53,071 nt of DNA from a virus (IMGVR_UViG_3300027811_000005:1-53071), one strand, 5' to 3'; shown: positions 6,787 through 52,314, numbered from the stretch's first letter. The notes: generated by a model not told the origin, from the sequence alone. Numbers and translations are program-made.

Positions 6787-6884
6787 GCCCTCATCCCCCG
6801 GCCCCTTCTCCCGAAGATCGGGAGAAGGGGAGAAGATCCTCATCCCCGCCCTTTCTCCCAAGGATTGGGGGAAGGGAGTTAGGA

Positions 6885-7814
6885 TTAGAGACGCCAGTTG
6901 GAGACGGGGGAGGCTTGACGGTGGGCGGTTTCGATGTCGGCCTGGGCGATGGCGAGATAGCGGCGCACCATCTCCATTGTGGAGTGTCCCAGGATGGTTT
7001 GCAGGGCGTAGGCATTGCCGCCATTGCGCAGAAAGTTGATGGCGAAGGTGTGCCGAAATCGGTGCGGGTGGCAATCGGGCACGCCGGCGCGCTCGCCGAC
7101 GCGGTGACAGAGTTTGATCAGGTCGTAACGTTCGAGTGGATGACCCTGAATCGTCAGGAAAACACGGTCGGCATTATCTTGTGGAGTGGGTCGGGTCGAT
7201 GTGTAACGCCAGATCGCCTGTGCGGTTGAGGCTGAAAACGGAATGACTCTCTCCTTGGTTCCTTTGCCTAAGACAAGCAACCGCTTGTTGGTCAGGTCGG
7301 TGTTGGACAGTTTCAACTCACACAGTTCTGTGGCACGGATGCCGGTATCCAGCAAAGTGAGGATCACGGCACGGTTTCTAAGGGCGGAGCACAGCCCGTG
7401 GGTACATTCACGCTTGCCGGGTCGAGAGTAGGGGCGTGACTTGGCGAGTGCATTGAGGAGAGCGCGCACATCAGTCTCCGTGAAGGGGACGATGGCGCGT
7501 ATCTCTGGATCGGGAGCATCAATATCCCGGATGAGGTTGTGGGGGACGATGTCTTCTTTGACGCACCAAGTCCAGAGCGCGGATAGACCGACGTGGATAT
7601 TCAGCAGGGTCTTTTTTGAGATGCCAGTCTGTGCGTTGAGGAAAGCACAGACCTGATCATCCGTGATAGAGGCGATGAGGGGATCGTCTGGAAAGTGGCG
7701 CTGGAGCTTGCCGAATGAGTTGGTGTAGTCGGCTATTGTGTGCGGGCTGAGTCGCCTGGCCTGAGCGGCGATGAGGTAGCCTTGCACGGCTTGTGAGAGT
7801 GTGATCTTATCCAT
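6885..7814 (-). CDS. int: Tyrosine integrase (phage integrase)
   Basis: LLDTGIRATEL, GKGTKER, HPHRFRHTFA, ILGHSTMEMVRRY catalytic motifs; ATG at 7814; next to tRNA fragment. Confidence 0.95.
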   Translation of the reverse strand: MDKITLSQAVQGYLIAAQARRLSPHTIADYTNSFGKLQRHFPDDPLIASITDDQVCAFLNAQTGISKKTLLNIHVGLSALWTWCVKEDIVPHNLIRDIDAPDPEIRAIVPFTETDVRALLNALAKSRPYSRPGKRECTHGLCSALRNRAVILTLLDTGIRATELCELKLSNTDLTNKRLLVLGKGTKERVIPFSASTAQAIWRYTSTRPTPQDNADRVFLTIQGHPLERYDLIKLCHRVGERAGVPDCHPHRFRHTFAINFLRNGGNAYALQTILGHSTMEMVRRYLAIAQADIETAHRQASPVSNWRL

Positions 7815-8000
7815 GTGTCCCCCGGTTGTGTGGCTCGGAACCGATAACAATGAGTTATCAGACCAGAAATTACGTTTTTTTTATTACTGGATGGGAGGTT
7901 AGCCAAGTGGCGTAGGGTAGGGTGATTTTGTCAGATCTGCTCGCTTGTGTCCACATGGGTGATGAGAATTGGGCAACCGTGAAGACACTGGTTGCACTTT

Positions 8001-9931: not shown

Positions 9932-10312
9932 TCAGACACTCTGCTTCTTCCCACGGCTCTCTCTCTTTTTGCGTTCCAACTTGAGCCGCGCTATCTGTAG
10001 CACTTCCTCTTGATCCGCTTCGCTCAGGTCGGGAAAGATGTGGAGTATCTCGTCCACCAAGGCGCTATGGTTGCCTTGAGGAGATATGGGCAGCAACTCT
10101 AGTTTTCTGAGCACGACTTCCGGGGGGATGTTTATGGCCTGGGCGAGTGCGATACCAGCATCCCACCCAATACCCTGTACACCTGATCTGGCCTTACTTA
10201 TGACCGAATGTGCGATTCCTGCTTTTTTTGCAACGGCATAGTCAGTCAGATCTAGGTCATGCAAGCGTGTATCTAGCCACTTGAAGAATGTAGGGGGTGT
10301 CTGTTTACTCAT
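9932..10312 (-). CDS. XRE-family HTH immunity repressor (CI-like)
   Basis: LTDYAVAKKAGIAHSVISKARSG HTH; divergent from cro-like gene. Confidence 0.8.
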   Translation of the reverse strand: MSKQTPPTFFKWLDTRLHDLDLTDYAVAKKAGIAHSVISKARSGVQGIGWDAGIALAQAINIPPEVVLRKLELLPISPQGNHSALVDEILHIFPDLSEADQEEVLQIARLKLERKKRESRGKKQSV

Positions 10313-10316
10313 AGTT

Positions 10317-10401
10317 TTGCCTGTTGACAATTATGCCTCATTTTGCCGTGTGAAAACACTCAAAATATTGCCTATTGACACGGATATATATATATGGTAT
10401 T
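10317..10401. promoter_or_regulatory. Lysis/lysogeny switch region with repeated TTGCCT(G/A)TTGACA
   Basis: AT-rich divergent intergenic region; direct repeats at ~10317 and ~10368; TTGACA 10375-10380. Confidence 0.55.
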
Positions 10402-10451: not shown

Positions 10452-10787
10452 ATGTCAAAAGTAGAAACTTCCCAATCACCCAAAGAGGCCCTGGTTCAGT
10501 GGGCCAAGCGAAATTCGATAACTCCCGCCAAGTTATCTGAGAAGACCAGCTATAGCTATATGCACTGCTGGTCTTTGCTGCGTGGAAACACAGAGATCAC
10601 GGCCGGGACGCTGGGCTGGCTGACGCTGGCGTTTGGGGCAGAGTCGGTGGCCGAGATCGCCGAGGCGATGCGGGCGGACATGCAGGATGCTCCGGCCGCG
10701 CCGAATGGGAAGAAGAAGGGCCGGGCCGTTGGGAAAGTAGGCCCTCATCCACTGCCCTTCTCCCGTGGAACGGGAGAAGGGAGTTGA
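10452..10787 (+). CDS. Cro-like HTH regulator
   Basis: ITPAKLSEKTSYSYMHCWSLLRG HTH-like; AGGAG RBS; divergent from repressor. Confidence 0.7.
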   Translation: MSKVETSQSPKEALVQWAKRNSITPAKLSEKTSYSYMHCWSLLRGNTEITAGTLGWLTLAFGAESVAEIAEAMRADMQDAPAAPNGKKKGRAVGKVGPHPLPFSRGTGEGS

Positions 10788-11751: not shown

Positions 11752-12084
11752 ATGGGAATGATCATGTTGAATGGGACGCAGGCGCTCAACCTGGATCAAG
11801 TGGTGGACGTGAAATACACGCCAGAGCATGAAGGTGATCAACCTACCGAATACTTTGATCAGGAAATTGGCAAGATGGTGTGTGGACTGTTCATCATCAT
11901 TTTGCATCCAGGGATTGAGATCACGACGACGGCGGTCAAGCTCGAGACGCTAGAGTATGACTATAGCCCGTTCCATGCTGTCGGTGGGTGTGCGAGCAAG
12001 GTCATCACACTGACGGGTGAAGATGCCGATATTGTATGGAAGTATATCGAATCCCGCTGCGATGTTCCAGTGTTGGAGGCGTGA
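11752..12084 (+). CDS. Hypothetical protein
   Basis: MGMIMLNG... start after REP-like repeat; stop overlaps recombinase ATG. Confidence 0.6.
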   Translation: MGMIMLNGTQALNLDQVVDVKYTPEHEGDQPTEYFDQEIGKMVCGLFIIILHPGIEITTTAVKLETLEYDYSPFHAVGGCASKVITLTGEDADIVWKYIESRCDVPVLEA

Positions 12085-13463
12085 TGGATAGCTTGGCGAT
12101 CGTCACGCAGGCCGAACAAGTCAGCGCTGGGCTGCAAAGGGCAACCCAGCGGGTTGCCCCTACCTTCGAGGTTGGGCCAAGGTTCTTTGAGAGCCGGGCG
12201 CGGTGGCTGGAGTGCCGTGATCACTGGTTGGAGATCAAGGCTGCGAGCTCGGGCTGGGAGAATACGCGGCGGGCATACCTGCGGGATTGGTCGGCGTTCC
12301 ACACGTTTTTGACGGATCGGCCCGAGCCGCTGGACTTTTGGAAGGTGGACGGGATGGTGGCCGGGGCGTGGATCGAATCGCTGCAAGCGCGGGGAATCGG
12401 CGATACGAGCATCAACCGGATGATCAGTGCGCTTTCCAGCTTTTATACGCACGCGACGACGCTGTTTTTGGTGGAGGTGCCAGGATACGATAGGCGCGTG
12501 CCACTATGGCCGAATGTGTTCGGGAACCCGTTCAAGCAGGTACAACGAATCAAGGTGCACGACAAGACGAACCGGCGCGAGTGGCCAACGCCGGACGAGA
12601 TGTTCCGGGTGTTTGACGGGATCGCGCTCACGTCGGCGCTGGACTGGCGGGACATGGCGATCCTGATGGGGATTTACATGACCTCGCGCCGGTCGTCCGA
12701 GTGGTTGAATTTGCAATGGAAGAATCTGCACGCTGAGGGCGACGAGTTCTGGTTCGAGTACCGCAATAAGGGCGGGGACCAGAAAAAGCAAGCGATGCTG
12801 CCCGAGTTGTATCAGTTGATCGTCCGGTATTTGCAGGAGGCGGGACGGTTGCCATTGCAACCAGACGATTTTGTGTTCGTGGCGCTCTCCGAGTATGCCA
12901 GGCGGCTGCGCAAGGCGGCGCGCGTGGTGATGCCCGCCGGGTTCCGTTTGGTGGAATGGTTGCTGGAGAACGGCGAGGCGGTAGAGGCTTACGCCGAGCT
13001 GGTGCGTGTGAACCACGACGGGGCGGTGTCTGTCTTGCGGGCAGAGGCGAGCGGGACGCTCAAGATTTTTGCCAAGCACCAGGCGCGCGCTGATGGGGCG
13101 GCGGTGATCGGGAGTGTGCTGGGTGAGTTCGTCGTCGGAAAGGACTATGTTCCTTCGGCGCATCCGTTGAGCAATCATTCGGCGAACGGTATGTTCAAGC
13201 GGCGCGGGGCGGCGGCCGGTGTTGACCTGGAAAAGTTGCACCTGCATGGGGGGCGGCACGCGCGGGCGAACCGGGAGTGGACAGCGAAGGATCGGGATAT
13301 TGTGTATCTCCGGGATTTGCTTGGGCATCGGTCATTGAGCACGACTGAGATGTACGGGCAGAGTCATTTTGCTGTGCCGACTGATAACCGGTCGGATGCG
13401 GTATGGGATGAGGCGGCGCCCAAACAGTTGCGGGCGCTGCTGGCGGTGGGGAAGGGGAGTTAG
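12084..13463 (+). CDS. Tyrosine recombinase with inserted lipoyl/biotinyl-like domain
   Basis: SAM-like N-domain (NTRRAYLRD, SINRMISALSSFY); catalytic R (SRRSSE), K (NKGG), HGGRH, LLGH, TTEMY. Confidence 0.9.
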   Translation: MDSLAIVTQAEQVSAGLQRATQRVAPTFEVGPRFFESRARWLECRDHWLEIKAASSGWENTRRAYLRDWSAFHTFLTDRPEPLDFWKVDGMVAGAWIESLQARGIGDTSINRMISALSSFYTHATTLFLVEVPGYDRRVPLWPNVFGNPFKQVQRIKVHDKTNRREWPTPDEMFRVFDGIALTSALDWRDMAILMGIYMTSRRSSEWLNLQWKNLHAEGDEFWFEYRNKGGDQKKQAMLPELYQLIVRYLQEAGRLPLQPDDFVFVALSEYARRLRKAARVVMPAGFRLVEWLLENGEAVEAYAELVRVNHDGAVSVLRAEASGTLKIFAKHQARADGAAVIGSVLGEFVVGKDYVPSAHPLSNHSANGMFKRRGAAAGVDLEKLHLHGGRHARANREWTAKDRDIVYLRDLLGHRSLSTTEMYGQSHFAVPTDNRSDAVWDEAAPKQLRALLAVGKGS

Positions 13464-13556
13464 GCCCTCATCCCTTCGACCTTGCTCAGGGCAAGCCCTG
13501 CCCCCCTTATCCCAAAGATTGGGAGTAGGGAGGCAGGAGGCGATCTGGAGGCTTAT

Positions 13557-14441
13557 ATGAAACAGTGCTATATCGAAAAGCGGTTCAACACATCCAGCCA
13601 GGTGATCATCAGCCAGGTCAACACTATCCTTGAAGAATATCGTGGGCTGGGCTACGTCCTGACTCTTCGGCAACTCTACTATCAACTCGTCGCGCGGGGT
13701 TATGTCGAAAACGATATGAAGTCGTACAAGCGCGTCGGCTCGATTATTTCTGATGCACGGTTGGCGGGGCTGGTTGACTGGAGCATGATCGAGGACAGAG
13801 GCCGTGACGTCGTTGCCCCACCCCACTGGACAAGCCCCGCCGAAATCGTGGAGGCTGCCGCTCGCCAATTTGCAATTGACAAGTGGGCAGACCAATCTTA
13901 CCACGTAGAGGTCATGGTCGAGAAACAAGCCCTCGAAGGCGTCCTGATACCTGTGTGCCGCGAACTTGACATCTCTTTCACGGCCAACCGCGGTTATAGC
14001 TCGTCCTCTGCCATGCGAGAAGCAGGACTACGCATCATGGAGAAAATGGGCGCGGGCAAGGATGTCGTTATTTTCTACCTGGGAGACCACGACCCCAGCG
14101 GCATGGACATGACTCGCGACGTGCGCGAGCGATTGGGATTGTTCGCTGAAACTGAACTCATCGAAGTGGACCGTCTAGCGCTCAATTATGACCAAATCGA
14201 AGTCCTCAACCCACCCGAAAACCCGGCCAAGACCACAGATAGCCGGGCACAAGCCTACATCGCAGAGTTTGGAGAATCATCCTGGGAACTGGATGCCATC
14301 GAGCCGCGTGCTTTGGCAGATCTAGTGCGTCAGGCTACCCTTGCACTTCGGGACGAGCGCCTGTGGGACAGCAACATCAAAGAGGAAGCAAGGATGAAAA
14401 AGGCGCTGATGAACTTTGCTGCCACCTACGAGCAAGATTAG
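13557..14441 (+). CDS. Topo VI-A/Spo11-like TOPRIM-domain protein
   Basis: LTLRQLYYQLV (wHTH Tyr), VEVMVEKQAL, YLGDHDPSG (DxD), WELDAIEP. Confidence 0.8.
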   Translation: MKQCYIEKRFNTSSQVIISQVNTILEEYRGLGYVLTLRQLYYQLVARGYVENDMKSYKRVGSIISDARLAGLVDWSMIEDRGRDVVAPPHWTSPAEIVEAAARQFAIDKWADQSYHVEVMVEKQALEGVLIPVCRELDISFTANRGYSSSSAMREAGLRIMEKMGAGKDVVIFYLGDHDPSGMDMTRDVRERLGLFAETELIEVDRLALNYDQIEVLNPPENPAKTTDSRAQAYIAEFGESSWELDAIEPRALADLVRQATLALRDERLWDSNIKEEARMKKALMNFAATYEQD

Positions 14442-15227: not shown

Positions 15228-16220
15228 ATGGACGAACAGGGGAATACACAATTGGTAGCATTTGACGCCGGGGCTGGCGCCGTGAAGGTGTGGACCGGAA
15301 CGGTCGGCGTGGAGATTCCCAGCCAGGTGGCGGTGGACGGTCAGCGGATGGCAACGGTGATGATGGGCCTGCGGAAGGCCAAGCCGCCGATGCAGATTGG
15401 GTTTGACGGCGGGGAATTTTTCGTCGGCCCGGGTGCGCACGACTGGGGTCGCGCTGTGGAGAACCTGGATTACGAGCGGTTGACGGGGACGCCAGAGATG
15501 CGTGCGCTGTTTTACGCGGCGCTGACGGGCCTGGTAGCCGGTGCTCAGACACTTAAACTGGCCGTGATCGTTGGGTTGCCGATCGAGGCGTTGGGGTCCG
15601 AGACGGTGACGGCGCTGAAGGCATGGATGCTCGTCCAGCATCATTGGGCGACGAATGATGTGAACTATTCCGCGACGGTGACGGATGTGCGCTGCACCAG
15701 TCAGCCGGTCGGCGCGCTGTTCGACTATCTGCTCGACGATGAGGGGAGCTTTATCGCCAACCGCGCGAGCGCGTTCAAGGGCGAGGCAGGAGTCATCAGC
15801 ATCGGTCACAGTACGGTGGAGCTCCTGGGCGTGCGCAATCGGACACCTGTGCAAAAGTGGACGCGGGGAACAACGCTGGGCGTTCAGCGACTCTTGGACA
15901 TTATCCGGGGCGATCAATCCTATACGCGCGGCGAATTGGATGAGCGGCTGCGCGCAGGTAAACTGGATGTTCGCAACGCTCTACCGGTATGGTGGAGCGA
16001 GATCGCTGGGCACCTGGATCACGAATGGGGCCGCGACTGGCGCAGGTTTGAGATTGTCATCGCCGTGGGCGGCGGGACGGTTTTGTTGCGCTCTCAGTTG
16101 GAGCACAAGTTTGGAACGAAGGTATTCATCCCGGAGCAGCCCGTGATGTCGGTTGCACGGGGACTGTGGAAGCTGGGGATGAGCCAGGTGAAGAAAACTG
16201 ACCGGGAGGTGACAAAATGA
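15228..16220 (+). CDS. ParM/StbA-family actin-like partition ATPase
   Basis: AFDAGAGAVK phosphate-1, IVGLP, SQPVGA, ISIGHSTVE phosphate-2, AVGGG, SVARGL. Confidence 0.9.
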   Translation: MDEQGNTQLVAFDAGAGAVKVWTGTVGVEIPSQVAVDGQRMATVMMGLRKAKPPMQIGFDGGEFFVGPGAHDWGRAVENLDYERLTGTPEMRALFYAALTGLVAGAQTLKLAVIVGLPIEALGSETVTALKAWMLVQHHWATNDVNYSATVTDVRCTSQPVGALFDYLLDDEGSFIANRASAFKGEAGVISIGHSTVELLGVRNRTPVQKWTRGTTLGVQRLLDIIRGDQSYTRGELDERLRAGKLDVRNALPVWWSEIAGHLDHEWGRDWRRFEIVIAVGGGTVLLRSQLEHKFGTKVFIPEQPVMSVARGLWKLGMSQVKKTDREVTK

Positions 16221-16864: not shown

Positions 16865-16944
16865 CCCTCAACCCCCGGCCCCTTCTCCCGAAGATCTGGA
16901 GAAGGGGAGAGGAAGGGGAAGGGGTCAAATAAAGAGGAGGAAGC

Positions 16945-17391: not shown

Positions 17392-17436
17392 CCCTCAACC
17401 CCCGGCCCCTTCTCCCAAGGATTGGGAGAAGGGGAG

Positions 17437-18152: not shown

Positions 18153-19264
18153 AGGCAAGCACGACTCTTTTAGCGATTCTGTCTGCATTGATTTTGACTG
18201 CAATGCTGGCTCTTTCGGCGTGCGATGTTCAAACGATACCACAGAGCATGGAGACAGTTGGCTCGGGCGCCGCTGAAACGAGCGCCGCGTATGCGGGGGG
18301 ACAACTTACCGTGCAGGCGGCATTGTACCGAGTGACGCTTGAGGCGCAGCAGGCACAGACCAATCGAGAGCAGCAAGCGCAGGCTGCGACGCAGACTGCG
18401 GCGCAAGTTATGCGGGCTTCCGAAGCAGAGCACAGAGCGTTACTGGCCACTGAATCTGCACAAGCGACCGAACGAACTTTGCGCGCAACGGAGGCAGCGG
18501 CACAACTCGCTGCAACTGAGCGGGCCTGGCAAGCAACGGTTCAGGCTCAAGCGACTGATCATGCTATCCAAGCAACCGCTACAGAGCGGGCCTGGCAAGC
18601 AACGGCAGTGGCCCAAGCGACCGATAGCAGTTTGAGAGCCACGGACCGCGCAGTCGCCATGACAGCAACCCGGACGGCTGCGCAAGCGACCGAGACGCGC
18701 CAGGCTGCACTAGCGACTGCGACGCGACAAGCCGAGGAACGCGGCGAAGCGATGGCTTCTTTGCGTGACTATGGTATTCCTCTCGTGCTGCTGGCATTGG
18801 CCGGTGGAATTATCGCCGCGATCATCGTTGGGGCACGCTGGATTGCCAAGCGGCCGGTTGTATTTCCGCGCAATCCATTGGGGGACGCGGATCCGGTCGG
18901 AGTTCCACAGGACGGCGGTGGCTATGCTTTTCTCGACATTGACCGGCAACCAGGGCCGGTTATCAAGGTATTGCCGAATGGAATCGTCGAAGCACCCTTG
19001 CTGCGCTCGGCAGATCAGGAGGAGCGGACTACGGCGCGGGATCAGGCTGTGGATGGGGTAAGCCGCCCAAGATTGGGATCAGGCAGCAAGAGCGAAACGC
19101 AAGCGATGCTGCCCATGTCACCTCCGCCTTATCCCCAGGTGCCGGGGTTGCGCAGTATTCGGATTTTGCGGCGGGGGGATCAAGCGGTACGAGCCGGAGC
19201 ATTGCCGCCTGCGCAGTGGGAGGCAATTCAAGCGGATTGGAACAGCGGGGTGGGAGATGAGTGA
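18149..19264 (+). CDS. Lipoprotein-like/membrane protein with A/T/Q-rich helical repeats
   Basis: LSAC lipobox-like, ATERAWQAT repeats, second TM helix. Confidence 0.7.
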   Translation: MKASTTLLAILSALILTAMLALSACDVQTIPQSMETVGSGAAETSAAYAGGQLTVQAALYRVTLEAQQAQTNREQQAQAATQTAAQVMRASEAEHRALLATESAQATERTLRATEAAAQLAATERAWQATVQAQATDHAIQATATERAWQATAVAQATDSSLRATDRAVAMTATRTAAQATETRQAALATATRQAEERGEAMASLRDYGIPLVLLALAGGIIAAIIVGARWIAKRPVVFPRNPLGDADPVGVPQDGGGYAFLDIDRQPGPVIKVLPNGIVEAPLLRSADQEERTTARDQAVDGVSRPRLGSGSKSETQAMLPMSPPPYPQVPGLRSIRILRRGDQAVRAGALPPAQWEAIQADWNSGVGDE

Positions 19265-20681
19265 CGAGATTGCTCATTACTGGAACGCTATTCTTGCCAC
19301 GCTTGAGCAACGCAGGCTGACGAATGAGCGGACTCGCCAGGGCGGAGTGATCGTGCCGGAAGCTGACGCTTACGTGCTACCCGACCGGGTTGTGTTCGTG
19401 TTGGATATGCAACGTCTGGCGGGAATCTCGCGCGAGACATGGCTCACACCTAATCTCTGGAAGCAGTTCGGGGCAGCGCTCCAGGGACGGAGAACGTTCG
19501 TATCCGACAGCGGCGGGCTGGCGATCACCGTGGCACGTGAACCGAGCGCAACGCTGGGCAAAAAGCTACCGGAGCGGATTCTGTTGTCCGAGGAGCACTT
19601 GCTTGACAAGCCGTACCAGGTGTGCCTGGGTTATACCACCCGTTATCCTGTGACGCTGGATATTGCCGGAGAGCACCGCGCGATTCTGATCGGAGGGACG
19701 AGCGGGGGCGGAAAGACGAACTTGATGCAGTCTATCATTCTGCAACTGGCAGCCAAGCATACGCCGGCGGAGGTTCAATTCGCCATCGTGGACACCAAGT
19801 TGGTTGACTTTGGCGAAGATTACGCCAGCCTACCTAATCTGTTAGCGGACATTGCGCACACGTTGGACGAGGCTGACCGGCTGATCGAGCAAGTGGAGGC
19901 CGAGCGCACACGCCGCCAGATGTTGATGGCGCAGGCGGGCGTGGCGCGATGGGAAAAGTATGCTGACCCTGAACCCTTGCCGTTGCTCGTGTTGATGGTG
20001 GACGAGGCGGCTGATTTCGCTCGCCGACCGGCAATGAGGACGTTGAAAGAGGTCGCCCGCAAGGGACGCGCGTTCGGGATCAGCGTGGTGGTCGGGACGC
20101 AACGGCCCTCGAACGACGTGATTGATGCGCAGGTGAAGGCAAATCTTCCTACGGCGATCTCGTTCCAGACCCGGTCGGACGTTGAGAGCCGGGTCATTCT
20201 TGGAGTGAGCGGCGCGGAGAAACTATGCCGGAGGGGCATGGCGCTGATGTTCGTGGGTGGGCGCTGGGAGACGGTGCAGACACTGCTTGTGGAAGACGGG
20301 GCGGCTCACCGGTTGATTCAAGAGCATGTGCAGGTTGAACACCCCGCGCTATCCGAGATCGAGCAGCAGTTGGTGGCGACAGCGGTGGATGAACTGGGCG
20401 GGGAGTTCAAGATCGTTGGACTGTATGCCAAATATCGAGGCAAGATCAGCAAGCGGGCACTGACAGCACTGGCAAAGCAGTGGGAGGCGCGGGGCTGGCT
20501 ATCGCACCGGGTTGATGCGACGACAGCACGGCGTGTCACCAATGAACTGATGCGTGTCACCAGTCGTGACACCAGTCGTGACACCAATTTGGGGGCCGTA
20601 TCACCGCCTGACACCCGTTTCACCGTATCACCAGATTTGGTGGAGACGGTAGGGGGCGGGACTGATAAGAATGAATTATGA
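19257..20681 (+). CDS. FtsK/SpoIIIE (TraB-like) DNA translocase
   Basis: GGTSGGGKT Walker A, IVDTK, LMVDEAAD Walker B, RKGRAFGI, GTQRP, GAEKL; possible C-terminal wHTH. Confidence 0.9.
   Translation: MSDEIAHYWNAILATLEQRRLTNERTRQGGVIVPEADAYVLPDRVVFVLDMQRLAGISRETWLTPNLWKQFGAALQGRRTFVSDSGGLAITVAREPSATLGKKLPERILLSEEHLLDKPYQVCLGYTTRYPVTLDIAGEHRAILIGGTSGGGKTNLMQSIILQLAAKHTPAEVQFAIVDTKLVDFGEDYASLPNLLADIAHTLDEADRLIEQVEAERTRRQMLMAQAGVARWEKYADPEPLPLLVLMVDEAADFARRPAMRTLKEVARKGRAFGISVVVGTQRPSNDVIDAQVKANLPTAISFQTRSDVESRVILGVSGAEKLCRRGMALMFVGGRWETVQTLLVEDGAAHRLIQEHVQVEHPALSEIEQQLVATAVDELGGEFKIVGLYAKYRGKISKRALTALAKQWEARGWLSHRVDATTARRVTNELMRVTSRDTSRDTNLGAVSPPDTRFTVSPDLVETVGGGTDKNEL
20533..20632 (+). repeat. 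Eight 8-mer direct repeats (GTRWCACC-like), clt/TRS-like
   Basis: GTGTCACC x2, GTGACACC x2, GTATCACC x2, CTGACACC, GTTTCACC at the 3' end of the FtsK gene. Confidence 0.7.
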
Positions 20682-21368: not shown

Positions 21369-22355
21369 ATGGGGATGTTTGCACAAGCACAAAGTCAACC
21401 GCCGAAATTACTGGATAGGGTACGTTCGGCAATTCGGATCAAGCATTATTCGTTGAAAACAGAACATTCGTATGTGCAGTGGGTTAGACGTTTTATCCTG
21501 TTTCATGGCAAGCGGCATCCCAGCGAAATGGGTGCTCAAGAGGTCGAGCAGTTTTTGACTCATCTGGCAGTTGAGCGGCATGTGAGTTCCAGCACCCAGA
21601 ACCAGGCTTTCTCAGCATTGCTGTTTATGTACCATGACGTACTTGGACTGGAGTTGAATAACGTGAACGCTATGCGTGCCAAGCGTTCAGTATACATTCC
21701 AACGGTTTTGACCGTTGTAGAAACGCGCAAAGTATTGAGCAACCTTGATGGTGTCTACAGCCTGATTGGGCAGATTCTCTACGGCGGTGGGTTGCGATTG
21801 ATGGAGTGTCTGCGGTTGCGTGTGAAGGATATTGATTTTGAACGGCGCACTCTCACGCTGAGAGATACGAAATCGTATCGAGATCGTGTGACGTGTTTGC
21901 CCGAAGCTGTCGTTGGGTCACTCAGGCTGCACTTGGCGAAGGTGCGCGCTCAATATGATATTGATTTGGCGAACGGAAGAGCGGATGTTGAGTTGCCCGG
22001 CGCGTTGGCACTCAAGTACCCTAATGCTGGAAAGGAATGGGCTTGGCAATATGTCTTTCCTGCGAGCAAGTTTTCAACTGATCCAAGGTCTGGGGCAGTT
22101 CGCCGTCATCATCTATATGAGACGAGCGTTCAAAAAGCCATCAGCAGGGCGGCAAAAGGGACTGGGATAGCTAAGTTGGTTGGGCCGCACACGCTGCGAC
22201 ATTCGTTTGCAACGCATTTGTTGGAAGCGGGTACTGACATTCGCACGATTCAGGAGTTGCTAGGGCATCGAGATTCGAAAACGACGATGATTTACACACA
22301 TGTTGCAAAGTGCGGCGCTGGGATCGTTTCGCCGCTGGATCGGGTTGGATATTAG
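21369..22355 (+). CDS. intI: Integron integrase
   Basis: [37 protein letters not shown]; IntI-specific insert [26 protein letters not shown]...DPRSG..RRHH; [21 protein letters not shown]. Confidence 0.97.
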
Positions 22356-23354: not shown

Positions 23355-24170
23355 ATGAACATTTTCTTTGTTGGGTTGAATCCGAGATGGCAACAATTCA
23401 AATGGCTACCATACGGCCTAAACGTGATGTATTCTGCCGCAGGATTTTGGAGCGGGAATGGTTGGCGACGCAAGCGATACATCAAACACGCTGGGATACG
23501 CTGGCTTGACTGTGGCGGTTTCACGCTATTGAATCGTTACGGTGATTTTCCGTTCACGGTGGTAGCACTGATGAATCTTGTGGCGTTCCTAAATCCGCAC
23601 TACTACGCCAGCATGGATTACCCATGTGAGCCTGACATCTCGCGTAGGCTGGGGCTGATGAACAATGATGAGAGAATCCGCGCCACAGTCACAAACACGG
23701 TTGCGATGATTGAATGGGAGAGCCAAGTTGGCGGCCAGCTTGTGCCAGTGATCCAGGGCTACACACTGGACGAGTACAGAAAATGCGTTGACCTACATCA
23801 CCAGAAAGGAACTATCCGGGAGTACATGGCTGTTGGCTCAATGTGCCGCCGTATCTCTGACGCAGAGTTGCACAATCTCATACCAGGAATAGCGACCCAC
23901 GCGCGGCAGGCGGGGGTGTGACGGTTGCACTTCTTTGGTTTGAAACTCTCTGAATCGTTACGCGATCTGTCAGAGTTCATCTGGTCACGTGATAGCGCGG
24001 TCGCACTCGATGACTATGATTCAGAGTTACGCGCTGGGCGTGGCGGTCGCCGCTGGCCGGTAGGCCAGTCGGAAAAGCGGCAATCGTTCGATGTGTTTTT
24101 CAACAGACTAAATTGTCTCGGTCTGCGCTACACGCTGCCGTCTAACAAGGGCTTGGAGCCGACGCCCTGA
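23355..24170 (+). pseudogene. Cassette 4: TGT/DpdA-like (deazaguanine transglycosylase-like) gene with in-frame TGA at 23919-23921
   Basis: WLDCGGF, SMDYPCEP, PVIQG, AVGSMCRR, then in frame after the stop RLHFFGLK and SRDS (TGT barrel motifs). Confidence 0.75.
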
Positions 24171-24515: not shown

Positions 24516-25430
24516 ATGTCAGAACGCGCGAGGTTCTACAACGATGATAGTCTGCTGGTCATGGCGACATTTGCAGAAGGTTTATTCGATGCGATTGTTA
24601 CCGATCCGCCTTATGAAGTCAATTTGAACAAGACGCGCTGTGCTTGGGACAGATGGCCCGAACCTGAGACATGGAAACAGATGTATCGCGTTATAAAACC
24701 CGGCGGGTTGCTGGCATTTACCATTGCGCCGCATGTGGCACACCTGCGCGTGCCAGATGTCTTTTCCGCCGGTTGGGAATTGCTAGAAGTTGGCTTTTGG
24801 GTGTGGGGCAATGGGCGTCCAGTTCGCCAAGACCGCCTAAAAAGGTGTTTTGACTTGGTGTACTTTTGTGGCAAGGGAATGCGCAGCCTATTCACGAATG
24901 ATGCTCGTATGGCGAATCGAGCGAACGCCATTACTGGTAGGCGCGGAAAGGTGACTGCACGCGCTGGTGGTTTGGGGTCTCAATTTCACGATTGCAAACA
25001 CTCACGCTCCTACGAGTGCGCACAAGACGACTATCATCCTGCGAACGTCGCCTGCTCTCAGGATGATGCGCCATTTGAAAAGACAGGCTACGAGTTACTT
25101 TTCGCGGTCAAGCGATTGCTACCAGTTGGAAAGGCGCACACCAAACACCCAACGAAAAAGCCGCTCGACCTGATAGGGCAAATCATCAAGTTGGTAAGCC
25201 GCGAGGGCGACACAGTTTTTGACCCGTTCATGGGTGACGGTACGACTGGCGAGTCGTCGTTGATTCTCAATCGCTCATTTGTCGGGATAGAGGCAGTGCC
25301 AGAGTATTTTGAGCGCGCAAAGAAGAACATCACCGGTGTCGAGGCGCAATTGCACTTGCCCGCTTTCCGTCTAACAAGCGGTTCCAGCCGACGCGCTTCG
25401 CTTGCCGATGTGCAAGATGAGTTGCTATAG
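24516..25430 (+). CDS. Cassette 6: N6-A/N4-C DNA methyltransferase (beta class)
   Basis: IVTDPPY, HPTKKP, VFDPFMGDGTT, FVGIE. Confidence 0.93.
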   Translation: MSERARFYNDDSLLVMATFAEGLFDAIVTDPPYEVNLNKTRCAWDRWPEPETWKQMYRVIKPGGLLAFTIAPHVAHLRVPDVFSAGWELLEVGFWVWGNGRPVRQDRLKRCFDLVYFCGKGMRSLFTNDARMANRANAITGRRGKVTARAGGLGSQFHDCKHSRSYECAQDDYHPANVACSQDDAPFEKTGYELLFAVKRLLPVGKAHTKHPTKKPLDLIGQIIKLVSREGDTVFDPFMGDGTTGESSLILNRSFVGIEAVPEYFERAKKNITGVEAQLHLPAFRLTSGSSRRASLADVQDELL

Positions 25431-25598: not shown

Positions 25599-28500
25599 AT
25601 GTCAGTATTTGACGAGATCAAGGACAAACTGAGGATCGAGGATGTGATTGGCGAGACGGTGACGCTCAAGATGAGCGGGCACAGCATGACGGGGTTCTGC
25701 CCGTTTCACGACAATCACAATACGCCGGCGCTGGCTGTGTGGCCCGAGACGCAGACGTGGAAGTGCTTTGCCGGGTGCGGCAGCGGGGACGTGTTCGACT
25801 GGGCAGAAAAGCGCGATGGGATGGACAAGCGCGGGGTGCTCAAGCTGCTGGCGCGCAAGGCGGGGGTGGAATTGACGCTTGCCACGCCGGAGCAATTGAA
25901 GGCGCAGGAGAAGCGAAAGGAAGCGACGCTGGTGGCGCAGGTTGCGGCCGCGTTCTTTCGGAAGCGAATGACGGAGGCGGCTGGCGCGCCTGGCGTGGAA
26001 TATGCCAGGAGCCGTGGCTGGGCCAGCGATACGTTGAAGGGGTTGGGGTATTTTGGGAAGGATTGGGACGGGCTGAAAAAGCACATGGCAGAGGCAGGCG
26101 TTGATCTGGAGTGTTCGGCGGCTGTGGCGCTGGTTGGGTATCGCGGCGATGTGGCGGCGTGGGGGAAGCGTTGGGGCGTGCGTGTGACTGATGAGGAGAT
26201 CAAGGAGGGGAAGATCCACGCGATGCCGCCAGAGATGCTGATGTATTGCCATGTGGAGGGGCGGAGTGTGGTGTATGTGAGCGGGAGGAGATTGCCCTCA
26301 TCCCCAACCCTTCTCCCCCTGGGGGAAGGGGGTATGCCCAAGTCGTGGAATCCGCCGGCGCGGCTGTTTGGGGAGAGGCAGCCATATTTCAATGCGTGTT
26401 TCAAGCATGGCAAGCCGGTGTTGATTGTGGAGGGCCAGGGGGATGCCAAGACGCTGGAAGAGTGGAAGTTGCCGGGGATTGCGTTGGCTGGGTGCGGGAC
26501 TGATAACGCTTTGTTATCGGTGCTGAAAAAGTGCGGGCAGGTGACGGTTGCGCTCGATCACGACCGGGCCGGGGAGTATGCTGCGACGGGGTTGATTCCC
26601 TACGGGACTGAGCCGCAGCCTTTCACGGAGCGGGTGAAGCGAAGCCTGTGCTGGAAGTTGGTCGAGGCCGGATTGCCCGCGACGAAGGTGAAGGTCTTGA
26701 CGTGGCCGCGCGAGGAGGGGAAGGATAAGGCCGATGCGAACGATTGCCTGAAGGCAGGCATGACGGGGGAGCAGGTCGGGGCGCTGGTGAAGGGAGCCGA
26801 ATCATTCCTGGATGTGATGCTGGGGTTCTCTTCCGATGATGGGAAGGACGAGGCAGAGCGGGACGAGGCGCGGATGATGGTGTTCGAGTTGCTGGCCGAT
26901 GTGGATGCGCGCTGGGTGATCGCGCGAAAGAAGCAACTCGCCAAGCAGCTCGATTACGATTCGGATACGTTCGAGCGCATGTTGATGGAGGCTCGGAAGC
27001 GGGCGGGGCAGGATGAGACGGGCCGCCCGATGTATGGCGTGTCCGGAGGACGGATGGTTCACAACAATTTCGACCGGATGGGGAATCCCTACGAGCAGAC
27101 GTTGCTCAACGGGGTGTTGAACATTACGGGCGACCTGGTGCTGGACGACGGGGAGAAACAAATGCGCCGATTCACGATAGAGTTCACGCGGGAGAACGGC
27201 GCCAAGTTCCAGCCGACCGAGGTTGACGTGGAGGATTACGCTCCTTTGAATTGGCTCTATTCTGCCTGGGGCGTGAATGCGATCGTGCCGGCTGGGCAGA
27301 GCGTGAAAGAGCACCTGCGAGTGGCGATGCTAACGCTTTCCAAGAACGTCGAGACGCTGCACCGGTATCAACACACGGGCTACCACAATATTGACGGACG
27401 GATGGTGTATCTGACGACGGTGGGCGCCGTTGGACGGGATGGGGTGCAGGTTGAGATCGAGCGGGCGGCGGACCGGTACCGGCTGCCGAGCAAGCCTGAA
27501 AACGTGGTCGAGGCGGCCAAGGCAAGTTTCAGGAGCCTGGGCGCTGGGAACCTGTACATCACGGTCCCACTGTTTTCAACCATGTACCTCGCGCCGCTCT
27601 CTTCTATTCTGGAGCCTGCGTTTTCAGTGTGGCTGTATGGGACAACTGAAACCTACAAGAGCGCCATCACGGCGCTGATGATGTGTCACTATGGCCGCTT
27701 CCTCTACAACACCCCGCCCGGATCATGGAGCGGGAGCACGGAGGTTGGCTTGCGTGTGATGGCGTTCATGCTCAAGGACATGCCGTTCTGGATTGACGAC
27801 TTTACGGCGCAGGCGACGGAGCGCGGAGACGACAACTTGCACGACCGGGCCGGGCGGGTGTTGCGGGATTGGGCCAACCGGACCGGCGGGCTGAAGGGGA
27901 CGGCGGAGGGGGGATTACGCAAGGTTCACAAGCCGCGCGGGATCGTGGTCAACAGCGCAGAGATCTTGCCGTCCGTGCGCTCGATCCGGTCAAGGCTACT
28001 GATGCTGGAAATGCAAAAGGGGTTTGTGAACCTGGACGACATTTTGGAGCGGTACAAGAACAGCGAGGTTGATCTATATCCTCACGCGATGGCAGCATAC
28101 GTACTCTGGGTAGGGGATCACTATGCCGAGTTGGAGAAAAGCCTCCCGCTTCGGCGCGATCAACTGGTGGCAGAGTGCAGAAACCAGAAAGGGGACTCGC
28201 GCGAATACAACCACGTGGCTACGGAGATGGTGGCCTTTGAACTGGCGACGCGATGGATGAATGAGATCGGGGCGATTGATACCATTGAAGCGAGCGCGAT
28301 GGTGAAATTCGCGTTCGATATGATGATGGCGGCAGCAGACGAGCAGACGGTTGACACACAGGTGGACGAGAACCCGGTCAACAAGTTTATGAATGAGCTG
28401 GAGCAGATGCTGGCGGATGGGACGGCGTTCGTCCGCCACGCAGATACTCCGAATGAAGAGACTCGCTCATTGCCGGAATCGGGACAACGGTCAGTGAATG

Positions 28501-31325: not shown

Positions 31326-31988
31326 TCATCCAGACTCCTTGCCTGCCTCCCACGCCTCAGAAAATTCACGACTAGCAAACATCTCTGCAAGGCCACTGAT
31401 TTGCTTCAAACGTAATACCTCGTCTGGATCAAGCCCCAATTCGCGCGCAATCCATTCATCCGAATGATTCCGGCGCGACAACTCGACAACTATCTCGCTC
31501 ATGCCTTGCACTAGATGTTTGCCGCGCGCACGATTGTGCCTGATGGTGGACGCGATTCTGTCTGATCTATCCTCTCTCCATGTGTTGATGGTTGTTACTG
31601 GCAAATATCCGAGCGTGCGTTTTCGTATCGCCTTACATTCCTTACCGATGCGGGTGCGGTGAAAGCCATCTACGACCTCGCGGTGACCATCTACCAGCCA
31701 TGTAACGACGGGTTGTGTGTAACCATCCTCTTTTACGCTCAATTCCAGCAGTCGCATCTCCGGCGGCGCGACCTGATTAGGGTTATAGTCATTAGCCTCC
31801 ACCGCATCAGACAGAACCCACAACACGCAATCTACCGGCTCATCTTTGAGTGGGCTGACGGCATGGAGAGCGATTTTGATCTCGTTGATAACTTCAATGC
31901 GTTCGTCGTTTGGCAATCCAGCGATTTCCTCACACAACGATTTTGCCTGCTCAATGACATTGTTTCCGATTAGGGTAAGATTCCCCAT
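31326..31988 (-). CDS. ibrB: IbrB-like ParB/Srx-domain protein
   Basis: EPVDCVLWV, ANDYNPNQVAPPEMRLL, DGYTQPVV, VVDGFHR, STIRHNRARGKH. Confidence 0.9.
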   Translation of the reverse strand: MGNLTLIGNNVIEQAKSLCEEIAGLPNDERIEVINEIKIALHAVSPLKDEPVDCVLWVLSDAVEANDYNPNQVAPPEMRLLELSVKEDGYTQPVVTWLVDGHREVVDGFHRTRIGKECKAIRKRTLGYLPVTTINTWREDRSDRIASTIRHNRARGKHLVQGMSEIVVELSRRNHSDEWIARELGLDPDEVLRLKQISGLAEMFASREFSEAWEAGKESG

Positions 31989-33190
31989 GCCGACCTCCGA
32001 TTTCTCATGATCTTTAGGTAGCGCTCGTATGCCTGTGATTTGTGCTGGCTGAAGGATAAGCCTTTGCACCAGTAGTCGTTACGCAAAAGTGCCTTGCAGA
32101 TACGCCGCCAACTCGGAACTGTTTTTTGAGCCTCGGCCTCGACGTCAGCTTCGTCGGGTATCGTCGGGTGCCCATGTTCTTGCCACCAATGTATGAACAC
32201 AGCGATTTTGTTGGTGAAATGTTCCTTTGTTTGTGGCGGAAGGCTCTCTAGCAGGAGCATAGCGAACGATTGCCATGTGTGTCCTTCCGGTTTCGTGATT
32301 TTCAGACGACCAAGGATGTTGCCAGATTCTTGGGCGTAGAGCGCGCCACTGTTGGCTCCGTTCACACGAGCCACTACACGCGCCCACGTCTCTGGCTCGA
32401 TCAGGTGAAATAGCCATAACCCTTTTCGCTGATCGTCCCCATAGGGCTGGCAGATACGAGCCTGGTGAATCGTCAATCCGGCCTGGTACATCAAGTCGTA
32501 GAGATGATTGTAGGGCTTGCCGGTCTTGCCGTGATAGGTCCAGATGTCCTCGGTTGACCAATCATAGATAGGGTAAATGTTCCACAAGGTCGGATCGTCA
32601 CCATCCTCGCGGACGCAGTTAGTCCATCCACGACCGCCGAATTTGACGCCATGCCCAGCGATGGTGCGCCAGCGATTCAGGCTCTCTGCTGTGCGAATTC
32701 CAACCATGCAGGCTGTCAACTGTCCCTGACCATACCAAAATCCGAACTTTGGCACAAACTCCTCGAATTCCATTGCATAGGTGTAGAACGGGAAAAATGA
32801 TGGATCGGTGATGGCGATGTCTGGGGGTTGCCTGATCCAGTCGGTTTCTCGTCCAGGTTCCCATGCGATCCAGTGATGCTCATACATGCTGACAGCGTTG
32901 CGCAGATGGATCGGCAGACATTCCCAGTAAGGTTCAATATTGTCACGGTACAGATCGAGCACCTCCAAAATGTGGTCAATGGTGAGTTTATACTGCCCTT
33001 CCAAATCCAGAAATAGAACGCCGACCTTGCGCCCGCGCGGGATTGCCTCATCCATCGCCATGTGCAACATCACAGTAGAGTCTTTCCCGCCGGAAAATGA
33101 GACGTAGACACGCGGGAATGTGTCGAATGTCCACGAGATACGTTGACGGGTTGCTTCGTACACGCTCATTCCAAGCATTCGTTTAGGCAT
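31970..33190 (-). CDS. ibrA: IbrA-like PAPS-reductase-domain/DUF3440 protein
   Basis: SFSGGKDS PP-loop, GIRTAESLNR, YPIYDW, RICQPYGDDQR, SWRRICK.LL.NDYWC. Confidence 0.92.
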   Translation of the reverse strand: MPKRMLGMSVYEATRQRISWTFDTFPRVYVSFSGGKDSTVMLHMAMDEAIPRGRKVGVLFLDLEGQYKLTIDHILEVLDLYRDNIEPYWECLPIHLRNAVSMYEHHWIAWEPGRETDWIRQPPDIAITDPSFFPFYTYAMEFEEFVPKFGFWYGQGQLTACMVGIRTAESLNRWRTIAGHGVKFGGRGWTNCVREDGDDPTLWNIYPIYDWSTEDIWTYHGKTGKPYNHLYDLMYQAGLTIHQARICQPYGDDQRKGLWLFHLIEPETWARVVARVNGANSGALYAQESGNILGRLKITKPEGHTWQSFAMLLLESLPPQTKEHFTNKIAVFIHWWQEHGHPTIPDEADVEAEAQKTVPSWRRICKALLRNDYWCKGLSFSQHKSQAYERYLKIMRNRRSAWGILP

Positions 33191-33542
33191 CGTTATCCTC
33201 TTGGATTGAACCATCCGGGGCGACGGTAATACGTCTCGTCCGCATCACGCCCAACTCAACGCACTCTCTGATTTCATATCGCCCAGGCTCAAGCGTGTAC
33301 CAATCGTACACGCCACGAGCGCCAAGCTTTTGAGCATGACTATAGTCTTTCATCATGCGCGGGATGGGAGTGCGACCATTTTGCTCCAGGCATGTTACGG
33401 ATGGGTAGTAACGCACTTGTCCATATTTCATCGCCCGGCACATCTCGCGGACTTGGATATTCTTGATCTTGCCGCGATCAAGCGCGTGCATGTAGGCGTG
33501 ACAATCATCACCAACGACTTCGAGTTTGATGATCGCATTCAT
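33183..33542 (-). CDS. Hypothetical protein
   Basis: Overlapping operon with ibrA; DYS.A...GARGVY motif. Confidence 0.65.
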   Translation of the reverse strand: MNAIIKLEVVGDDCHAYMHALDRGKIKNIQVREMCRAMKYGQVRYYPSVTCLEQNGRTPIPRMMKDYSHAQKLGARGVYDWYTLEPGRYEIRECVELGVMRTRRITVAPDGSIQEDNDA

Positions 33543-35060: not shown

Positions 35061-35456
35061 ATGAATGTGAAAGGACTGCGTGGAAGCAGGAATGGCGCGG
35101 AGGTTGCGCAACCGAATGTGTGGTTCACGGCCGGGATGTGGCGGAGGCTGTTCAAGGGGGAGGAGGAGCAGGCACGCAGTTTGCGGCTGGCGTTGGTGGA
35201 CCTGCTGGTGTATCCGCTTCATCCGTTGACGCTGGCGAATTGTCCGGCGGTGTCGGTGGCAAATCATCGGGCGGCGCTGCACCAGGTGGTGGATGAGCTG
35301 GACGCGACGGAGGCGCACGTGCTGTTCAATGTGGGGCGACTGCTGTTGTTGGTGCCGCGCCGGCGGGAGGTGTTCCGGTACATACGGGAGAGGCAGGAGG
35401 CCCTCATCCCCGGCCCTTCTCCCAAGGATTGGGAGAAGGGTGGAGCGCCAAAGTGA
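35061..35456 (+). CDS. Hypothetical protein downstream of a structured leader
   Basis: AAAGGA RBS; preceded by promoter-like TTGACA...TAGGAT. Confidence 0.55.
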   Translation: MNVKGLRGSRNGAEVAQPNVWFTAGMWRRLFKGEEEQARSLRLALVDLLVYPLHPLTLANCPAVSVANHRAALHQVVDELDATEAHVLFNVGRLLLLVPRRREVFRYIRERQEALIPGPSPKDWEKGGAPK

Positions 35457-39276: not shown

Positions 39277-39448
39277 AGGGACCCCACCCCTGGCCCCCCC
39301 CCCGTCGAGTACAACGGGAGAGGGGAAGAAGCGGGACTGATAATCATTTGTTATGCGTGCCGGCCCCCCATCCCGCGTTGGGTACAACGCGACCTTCTCC
39401 CAAGGATTGGGAGAAGGGGGGAGAGTGTAGAACTGGAACGGAAGGTGA

Positions 39449-44469: not shown

Positions 44470-44618
44470 TTTTGTTGTAACAGGCCCTCATCCCGCGTTG
44501 GGTACAACGTGCCCTTCTCCCAAGGCTTGGGAGAAGAGGAGAGGAAGAGCGGGACTGATAATGTGTTGTTATGCGTTCCGAGTACAGAACGGGAGCGGGG
44601 TTGTAGTCAGGAGGAGGT

Positions 44619-48730: not shown

Positions 48731-48874
48731 GGCCCCACCCCCTGCCCCTCCCCCCATCGAGGACGATGGGAGAGGGGAGAGAGCGGGACTGATAACCGTT
48801 TGTTATGCGTGCTGACCTCATCCCCCGGCCCCTTCTCCCAAGGATTGGGAGAAGGGGAGGAAGAGGAAGGTTGA

Positions 48875-52152: not shown

Positions 52153-52314
52153 GACCTCATCCCCCGACCCCTTCTCCCAGGGGGAGAAGGGGGTGAGAGC
52201 CGGGACTGATAAGTGGTTGTTATGCGTGCCGGGGTATGGCGCGGAGGGCAACCACGAGGGTTGCCCCTACAGGACGGGGGCTTGACTTTTGGACGCGAGG
52301 TTAGGAGCAGGGGC

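Follow-up and report, generated by a model that had tools for sequence, protein, structure and literature searches.

A probable lysine-less lipoyl-type domain in the catalytic domain of a phage tyrosine recombinase

What would a segment resembling a lipoyl domain be doing inside the catalytic domain of a DNA recombinase? The question is raised by a tyrosine recombinase gene in the virus record IMGVR_UViG_3300027811_000005 (positions 1-53071; "the window" below means this whole stretch of 53,071 bases). CheckV rates the record as 100% complete, and with its siphophage tail, portal, capsid and terminase genes it is the genome of a temperate-looking siphophage. An initial annotation, made from the sequence alone, placed a lipoyl/biotinyl-like domain between the catalytic lysine and the HxxR motif of the recombinase. 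The explanation that we consider best, and to which we give a probability of roughly 0.5, is that a diverged lipoyl-like domain lacking the modifiable lysine sits in a loop of an intact recombinase and serves there as a non-catalytic docking or steric module.

The recombinase and its divided catalytic domain

The open reading frame (ORF) at 12036-13463 on the plus strand is open throughout, with no stops on translation. An in-frame ATG at 12036 gives the longer reading of 475 amino acids (aa; P0001). The ATG of the database start at 12084, which gives the 459-aa protein P0002, overlaps the TGA of an upstream 110-aa ORF as TGATG; that ORF had no match in Pfam or PHROG. The ORF 12084-13463 codes for a tyrosine recombinase that is Xer/Cre-like and intact. 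Its product matches the phrog_1 integrase (E 7e-25), the SAM-like N-terminal domain PF02899 (40.4 bits, cut-off 22.3) and Phage_integrase, PF00589 (57.4 bits, cut-off 27.1), the last in two stretches flanking the insert. In a genome-level profile search the PF00589 profile resumes, from position 100 to 101, across a gap of 267 nucleotides.

The R-K-H-R-H/W-Y catalytic set is complete, comprising R203, a candidate lysine K229 with K234/K235, H388, R391, H415 and Y424 in P0002 numbering. R391, H415 and Y424 are invariant and H388 nearly so in alignment A1, R203 is nearly invariant in alignment A3, and K229, G230, G231 and Q236 are invariant in alignment A5. Alignments of 22 and of 148 relatives both show conservation of the catalytic Arg, His-x-x-Arg, His and Tyr.

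AlphaFold2 run on the single sequence of P0002 reached a mean predicted local distance difference test (pLDDT) score of only 33. With the 148-sequence alignment the model has a mean pLDDT of 84.2 and a predicted template modelling score of 0.76, with most of the core above 90. Its best solved match in Foldseek is XerH (5jjv_A, E 1.4e-10), followed by Cre, XerA and IntI, the last (2a3v_A) matching the recombinase core with an E value of 5.7e-8. Against BFVD, Foldseek found ordinary integrases only (TMq ≤0.51).

XerC (TIGR02224) and XerD (TIGR02225) are the best NCBIfam matches, with 77.4 and 70.4 bits, far under their equivalog cut-offs of 335.15 and 329.6 bits; by these scores the protein is Xer-like and is no orthologue of either. 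The integron integrase model TIGR02249 gave 12.5 bits over the C-terminal part only, below its cut-off of 265, and the insert is predicted without helix; the enzyme is no integron integrase. With XerC, XerD, XerH, XerA and Cre the present enzyme has in common its core fold, its SAM-like N-terminal domain and a full set of catalytic residues; it differs from them in being phage-borne and in having N- and C-terminal extensions and the insert. A protelomerase was ruled out, the protein being Xer-like and of 459 aa, with relatives of 330-420 aa.

The insert itself is the peptide VVMPAGFRLVEWLLENGEAVEAYAELVRVNHDGAVSVLRAEASGTLKIFAKHQARADGAAVIGSVLGE, residues 297-364 of the 475-aa reading and 281-348 of P0002. 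The initial annotation had quoted this peptide correctly and assigned it to 12920..13125; the peptide really lies at 12924-13127, and the earlier start is out of frame, meets a stop on translation and has 12921 as its nearest codon. The claim that the insert falls between the catalytic lysine and HxxR holds, as the segment is flanked by the beta2-beta3 lysines (codons 12783-12788) and the HxxR codons (13245-13256) and splits the Phage_integrase match.

Identity of the inserted domain

Biotin_lipoyl (PF00364) is the sole Pfam family matched by the segment, with an E value of 9.4e-4 and 19.4 bits against a cut-off of 22.1, over positions 16-55 of the 73 in the profile. NCBIfam gave a weak match of the insert to the lipoyl region of acetoin-dehydrogenase E2 (E 0.029). 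A phmmer search of the PDB sequences gave seven matches at E ≤10, the top four being pyruvate dehydrogenase protein X/E2 lipoyl domains with weak E values of 0.05, 0.17, 0.18 and 0.57.

The identification depends mainly on transitive homology through a relative, P0007. This protein, with 458 aa and 36% identity, was the one full-length protein to align unbroken across the insert in a library-wide HMMER search that gave 720 matches at E ≤1e-3. Its insert passes Biotin_lipoyl over profile positions 2-73 of 73, with 32.1 bits in the whole protein and 37.7 bits as a segment alone, and PF00364 is present in its precomputed annotation. The inserts of the window and of P0007 lie at the same site, are 68 and 69 aa long and align with one gap. 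In BLASTP they match each other with an E value of 6e-10 when flanks are included and of 0.001, over 47 residues, when the cores are compared alone. Profile A2, made from three inserts (the window's, that of P0007 and that of the fragment P0017), matched 46 PDB sequences with E values of at most 1. Lipoyl domains make up the whole of the top ten, headed by an E2 at 2.6e-16, and biotinyl domains come next. The lipoyl resemblance first noted by eye is thus upheld at the level of profiles, by Pfam, the PDB sequence matches, P0007 and the insert profile. We consider it very probable, on these comparisons, that the insert is a lipoyl/biotinyl-type (barrel-sandwich hybrid) domain.

The best matches, the E2 and protein X (E3BP) lipoyl domains and the biotinyl domains of PF00364, share with the insert a length of about 70 residues and, as predicted, a strand pattern; unlike them, the phage insert has no modifiable lysine, and the window copy falls below the Pfam cut-off. 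AlphaFold2 predicted the insert as all-beta, with strands at 287-293, 306-311, 314-319 and 325-327, an order that presumably fits that of lipoyl domains; block-mean pLDDT was only 44-71. In the ESM Atlas all eight rows listed for the P0007 insert are lipoyl-named or Biotin_lipoyl clusters, with scores of 0.86-0.88 that lie under the tool's bar of 0.9, and we therefore take this result as a lead only.

Several results weigh against the identification. The window copy stays under the Pfam cut-off of 22.1 bits both as a segment (19.4) and in the whole protein (14.8), and among the sub-threshold NCBIfam matches over the insert it is SDR_TniO_fam (E 2.6e-4, 20.5 bits, cut-off 300) that stands first, above E2. 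Pfam makes no Biotin_lipoyl call on P0156, a third insert-bearing protein. Of two technically poor profiles built without P0007, A7, in which a repeat in P0156 was taken as match columns, reached a best PDB E value of 0.64, and A8, in which just 45 positions were kept, found nothing significant in the PDB. The ESM Atlas gave the window insert no lipoyl neighbour, with feature scores ≤0.81 and structure template modelling (TM) scores <0.5. Since the pLDDT over the insert is low, neither its fold nor its placement is shown by the model. The checks that the initial annotation had proposed thus divided: Biotin_lipoyl was missed by the window's own copy but passed by that of P0007, and modelling with Foldseek gave a confident recombinase core but did not confirm the fold of the insert.

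These scores could also be caused by chance or convergence in a beta-rich insert that is not of lipoyl type. All of the window's own scores are sub-threshold, as such a reading would have it, the ESM Atlas and the P0007-free profiles miss lipoyl domains, the insert model is of low confidence, and the cores-only comparison with P0007 is modest. However, three libraries independently rank lipoyl domains at or nearly at the top, the segment has the same site and length as the clear Pfam-member insert of P0007 and is collinear with it, and the combined profile reaches the E value given above. We regard chance or convergence as quite unlikely.

Lipoyl and biotinyl carriers are defined by a modifiable lysine at the tip of a beta-hairpin, in a D-K-A or M-K-M motif. 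The proposal that this lysine is replaced by glycine in the window is confirmed by the HMMER alignment to 2dnc, in which N-H-D-G-A stands opposite the E-T-D-K-A of protein X. The position is Gly in the window, Gly in P0156 (D-G-A) and Asp in P0007, so that the lysine is lost in all three full-length copies, and the window hairpin, VRVNHDGAVSVLR, contains no lysine at all. A working carrier, a swinging arm modified by a host ligase, would have the family resemblance in its favour; with the residue replaced in every full-length copy (G, G, D) and a lysine-free hairpin in the window, the chance of this is close to nil. As the modifiable lysine is absent, we file the insert as lipoyl-like and not as a cofactor carrier, and we infer that it is a non-catalytic surface module.

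Barrel-sandwich hybrid modules without the lysine occur in the HlyD/RND membrane-fusion adaptors and as inserts in the beta and beta' subunits of RNA polymerase. They resemble the phage insert in being lysine-less and structural and in frequently residing within other domains or being split by them, and differ from it in serving transport or transcription and not recombination; the RNA polymerase comparison is one that we presume. The P0007 insert also passes HlyD_3 (24.8 bits, cut-off 22.2), and MexC-like and RNA polymerase beta' chains are among the insignificant matches of profile A7.

Distribution of the insert and tolerance of the loop

The domain is inserted in the loop that links the strand FVFVAL to the helix ahead of HxxR. 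We measured this loop, between FVFVAL and PLS, in the 140 rows that span the site in the 148-row alignment. The shortest loop has 0 residues and the longest 93, the median being 18. Two of the 140 rows, P0002 and P0007, have the lipoyl-like insert (loops of 92-93), three others (P0052, P0062 and P0084) have unrelated inserts of 58-61 residues in the same loop, and the remaining rows have at most 37 residues. P0156, 64% identical, is a further full-length copy with the insert and was found separately, which brings the full-length carriers to three, at 100, 64 and 33-36% identity. Two fragments, P0017 and P0008, include the C-terminal portion of the insert. Homologues with and without the insert, which the initial annotation had suggested seeking, are therefore both available. 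Close insert-less relatives retain the flanking motifs ..ARL.R.. and ..DY.P..P.S, and the domain has thus taken the place of about 10 residues of the native loop tip. An assembly chimera was ruled out, the insert recurring in independent data sets.

Wider searches gave little. All 14 related loci taken from IMG/VR and the JGI metagenomes lack the insert and have loops of 13-36 aa. Word-based searches with the insert region recovered only the query, among 161 candidates for P0001 and 156 for P0007. With A2, none of 44 pattern matches in viral contigs and none of 94 in metagenome contigs was confirmed as an insert-bearing locus. Scans with A4 confirmed none of 26 in genome contigs and two of 171 in metagenome contigs, both insert-less, and scans with P0007 none of 25 in genome contigs, with no pattern match in viral contigs. 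The P0017 scan gave two weak loci with 36 residues of the C-terminal part only, and the P0008 scan confirmed none of 11. No match to P0002 was found by tblastn among 50,697 phage records, and the two weak matches found among 72,556 plasmids stop near where the insert starts, at query residues 283 and 307, and leave it uncovered. A lysine-less lipoyl-like domain within the catalytic domain of a recombinase is thus a rare architecture. Whole-domain insertions in the catalytic domain of tyrosine recombinases are, to our knowledge, rare in general. The initial annotation's statement that no such fusion is known agrees with our search of the full-text literature (excluding subscription journals), in which we found no report of a lipoyl or barrel-sandwich hybrid domain in a tyrosine recombinase.

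A different insertion, of about 55-60 residues with a pattern HHP.C ... C..C, occurs in the N-terminal domain of P0015 and P0020; the pattern suggests a zinc-binding module. Pfam names none of the inserts in P0015, P0020, P0052, P0062 and P0084.

What the domain may do

The lipoyl fold is a flattened beta-barrel made of two four-stranded sheets, and its N and C termini lie side by side. Such adjacent termini would let the domain sit on the tip of the hairpin and leave the host domain undisturbed. In alignments, P0002 residues 371-425 correspond to residues 225-278 of XerD, and 378-443 to 300-362 of XerH; the helix matching XerD from 225 and XerH from 300 follows the insertion point at a distance of some 15 residues. 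In XerH the preceding helix, alphaK, contacts the outer part of the arm via K290 (PMC5241119), and in XerD the helices that bind FtsK-gamma are on the face away from the DNA (PMC5052618). Since the insertion point comes just ahead of the helix that reads the outer arm in XerH and Cre, the domain probably lies on the periphery of the recombinase-DNA complex, where it would act not by DNA binding but by protein-protein docking, or by steric control of synapsis, directionality or activation.

The net charge of the insert is -3 in the window and -7 and -6 in the other two full-length copies, so that it is acidic in all three; the rest of each insert-bearing protein is basic (+7, +7 and +4). P0156 has a 20-residue low-complexity repeat, made of AQNDMG units, exactly at the hairpin tip of the insert. 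The charge, together with the tolerance of the hairpin tip, leads us to favour the docking or steric role, which we advance tentatively and at somewhat less than even odds. Against it, unrelated inserts occupy the same loop in three of the 140 relatives, so that an insert at this site need not have a function. Repeats of the AQNDMG type in P0156 were observed also at the N-terminus of the called ORF, in addition to those in frame within the insert. They resemble copies of a small repetitive DNA element inserted into the gene.

The addition to this part of a tyrosine recombinase that is most familiar to us is the I2 element of the integron integrase IntI, which gave rise to a new type of recombination and which we take to lie just before the strand that precedes the present insertion point. 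The initial annotation had placed the phage insert in the same interval; this is right to the extent that both fall between the lysine and HxxR. According to PMC4792948 and PMC7790495, I2 consists of added residues in the catalytic domain, in the same interval, that bind extrahelical bases and created a new function. It differs from the phage insert in being a helix of 20 residues, whereas the latter is an acidic segment of about 68 residues predicted to be all-beta, with an unrelated fold.

The insert could likewise be a substrate-recognition module, one that contacts unusual folded or flanking DNA and so changes what is recombined. It lies in the beta-hairpin interval where integron integrases gained I2, and it emerges beside the DNA-reading helix. 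The phage also has candidate substrates, in the form of a hairpin-forming dispersed palindrome, CCCTTCTCCC-N3-7-GGGAGAAGGG, that is present in seven perfect copies against none expected (100 shuffles). Allowing up to one mismatch, we counted 35 occurrences of the palindrome 10-mer, where 5.9 would be expected. With arms of 10 bp and a spacer of 7 bp, the palindrome resembles a recombinase core site in its geometry. Of the copies compared with the ORF list, most lie between long ORFs, and several overlap a listed ORF. The palindrome is absent from 16 related loci, and an exact search of IMG/VR found none.

However, one strand carries all four copies whose spacer is AAGGATT, and recombination between copies in one orientation would delete segments of the genome. 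Because of this direct orientation we favour terminators or some other regulatory hairpin as the nature of the palindromes. The insert, moreover, is acidic in every full-length copy, its residues conserved between clades are at what we take to be fold core positions and not on a basic surface, and in P0156 its hairpin tip tolerates the 20-residue low-complexity insertion. An I2-like recognition module is on balance unlikely. So is a version in which the insert would be a functional innovation comparable to I2, namely a docking or receiver module by which strand exchange is gated and recombination is coupled to a lipoyl-recognising partner of phage or host, or to unusual DNA such as the palindromes; we hold this to be improbable. 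If the gating reading were true, the protein would define a new subclass of tyrosine recombinases under regulation, and its loop would offer a natural site at which to insert domains in the engineering of switchable recombinases.

A further explanation is that the insert is a tolerated passenger, which came to rest in a permissive loop, takes no part in recombination and is now decaying. The variable loop and its three unrelated inserts, a window copy decayed below the Pfam cut-off, a P0156 copy broken by the repeat and lacking a Pfam call, and the great rarity of insert-bearing forms are all consistent with this. Decay accords less well with a near-constant length (68 and 69 aa with one gap) in proteins only 33-36% identical, with an identity of 26-29% in the insert that is near that of the rest of the protein, with a conserved hydrophobic pattern that presumably represents the fold core, and with the lack of a frameshift or stop in any copy. 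We think a passenger rather unlikely; were it one, it would still document the permissiveness of the loop, at 0-93 residues in 140 relatives.

On the docking or steric reading that we prefer, control of synapsis or activation by the domain would be a new mode of regulation for a Cre/Xer-type enzyme, and a loop with a natural tolerance for a domain of 70 residues would be useful in the design of ligand- or partner-controlled recombinases. The insert is in any case a second, unrelated addition in the interval of I2, with a recognisable fold (if the identification is right) stripped of its cofactor site. The architecture should surprise recombinase specialists, but it is rare and, in the window copy, partly decayed.

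Gene neighbourhood of the recombinase

The coordinates of the recombinase, its parts and the surrounding features are collected in Table 1.

Table 1. Features of the recombinase gene and of the surrounding phage genome (positions in the window)
Feature	Position	Strand	Remarks
Ordinary integrase (tyrosine recombinase)	6885-7850	-	
HTH (helix-turn-helix) repressor-like gene	9932-10330	-	
Upstream 110-aa ORF, family unknown	11752..12084	+	stop overlaps recombinase start
Tyrosine recombinase gene, 459 aa (P0002)	12084..13463	+	ORF; database start ATG 12084
N-terminal SAM-like core-binding domain	12258..12455	+	PF02899, P0001 residues 75-140
Catalytic domain, first part	12630..12887	+	PF00589 profile 17-100
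Arg I codon	12690-12692	+	in catalytic first part
Beta2-beta3 lysines	12768-12788	+	in catalytic first part
Probable lysine-less lipoyl/biotinyl-like inserted domain, 68 aa	12924..13127	+	P0002 residues 281-348
Gly codon at lipoyl-lysine position (D-K-A to D-G-A)	13020..13022	+	HMMER alignments to 2dnc, 1zy8
Catalytic domain, second part	13155..13367	+	PF00589 profile 101-169
His codon	13245-13247	+	in catalytic second part
Arg codon	13254-13256	+	in catalytic second part
His codon	13326-13328	+	in catalytic second part
Tyr codon	13353-13355	+	in catalytic second part
Degenerate palindrome copy	13504..13530	.	one mismatch per arm; 93-bp gap after recombinase gene
Topoisomerase-like gene, directly downstream	13557-14441	+	phrog_6247 'DNA topoisomerase', E 4e-113
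ParM-like actin	15228-16220		
FtsK/SpoIIIE-like ATPase	19257-20681		
Third tyrosine recombinase	21369-22355	+	
Likely DNA modification: DpdA/queuine tRNA-ribosyltransferase-like	23355-23921	+	
Likely DNA modification: N6/N4 DNA methylase	24516-25430	+	
Likely DNA modification: PAPS-reductase + DUF3440 protein	31970-33214	-	
Perfect palindrome copies	63-89, 6803-6829, 10755-10781, 17407-17433, 35414-35440, 48830-48856, 52169-52191		
Degenerate palindrome copies (examples)	6850-6876, 16880-16906, 26308-26330, 39392-39418, 44512-44538		

The recombinase gene is part of a rightward early block that follows the HTH repressor-like gene. Downstream of it are, in order, the topoisomerase-like gene, a ParM-like partition gene, an FtsK/SpoIIIE-like gene and the third tyrosine recombinase. 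Three tyrosine recombinase genes thus occur in one 53-kb phage, 4-8 kb apart; as they are not adjacent, a recombinase-in-trio element was ruled out. Their presence together with the ParM-like and FtsK-like genes suggests plasmid-like maintenance besides integration. To judge from these neighbours, the task of the insert-bearing enzyme is probably multimer resolution or a second site-specific reaction, which it would carry out beside the ordinary integrase.

Near the insert-less orthologue in 12 related viral loci, we found a homologue of the ordinary integrase in five, of the FtsK-like gene in four and of the ParM-like gene in two; homologues of the topoisomerase-like gene and of the upstream 110-aa ORF were found in none of the 12. 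A complex prediction of the insert (A2) with the product of the 110-aa ORF gave no answer (score 0.00, mark 0.32) and is evidence neither way. The topoisomerase-like product has a weak match to the Toprim-like Pfam family DUF2399 (E 0.0077) and no relative among the PDB sequences. It is possibly a 'mini-A' protein, one of the small topoisomerase VI A-like proteins found in mobile elements, a name that is our assumption.

The phage also carries the likely DNA-modification genes listed in Table 1. No tRNA genes were found in the window, which contains no copy of HIP1 (GCGATCGC). GC skew is positive on the plus strand in nearly every 2-kb bin, and the cumulative skew climbs throughout, which fits the mostly rightward orientation of the genes.

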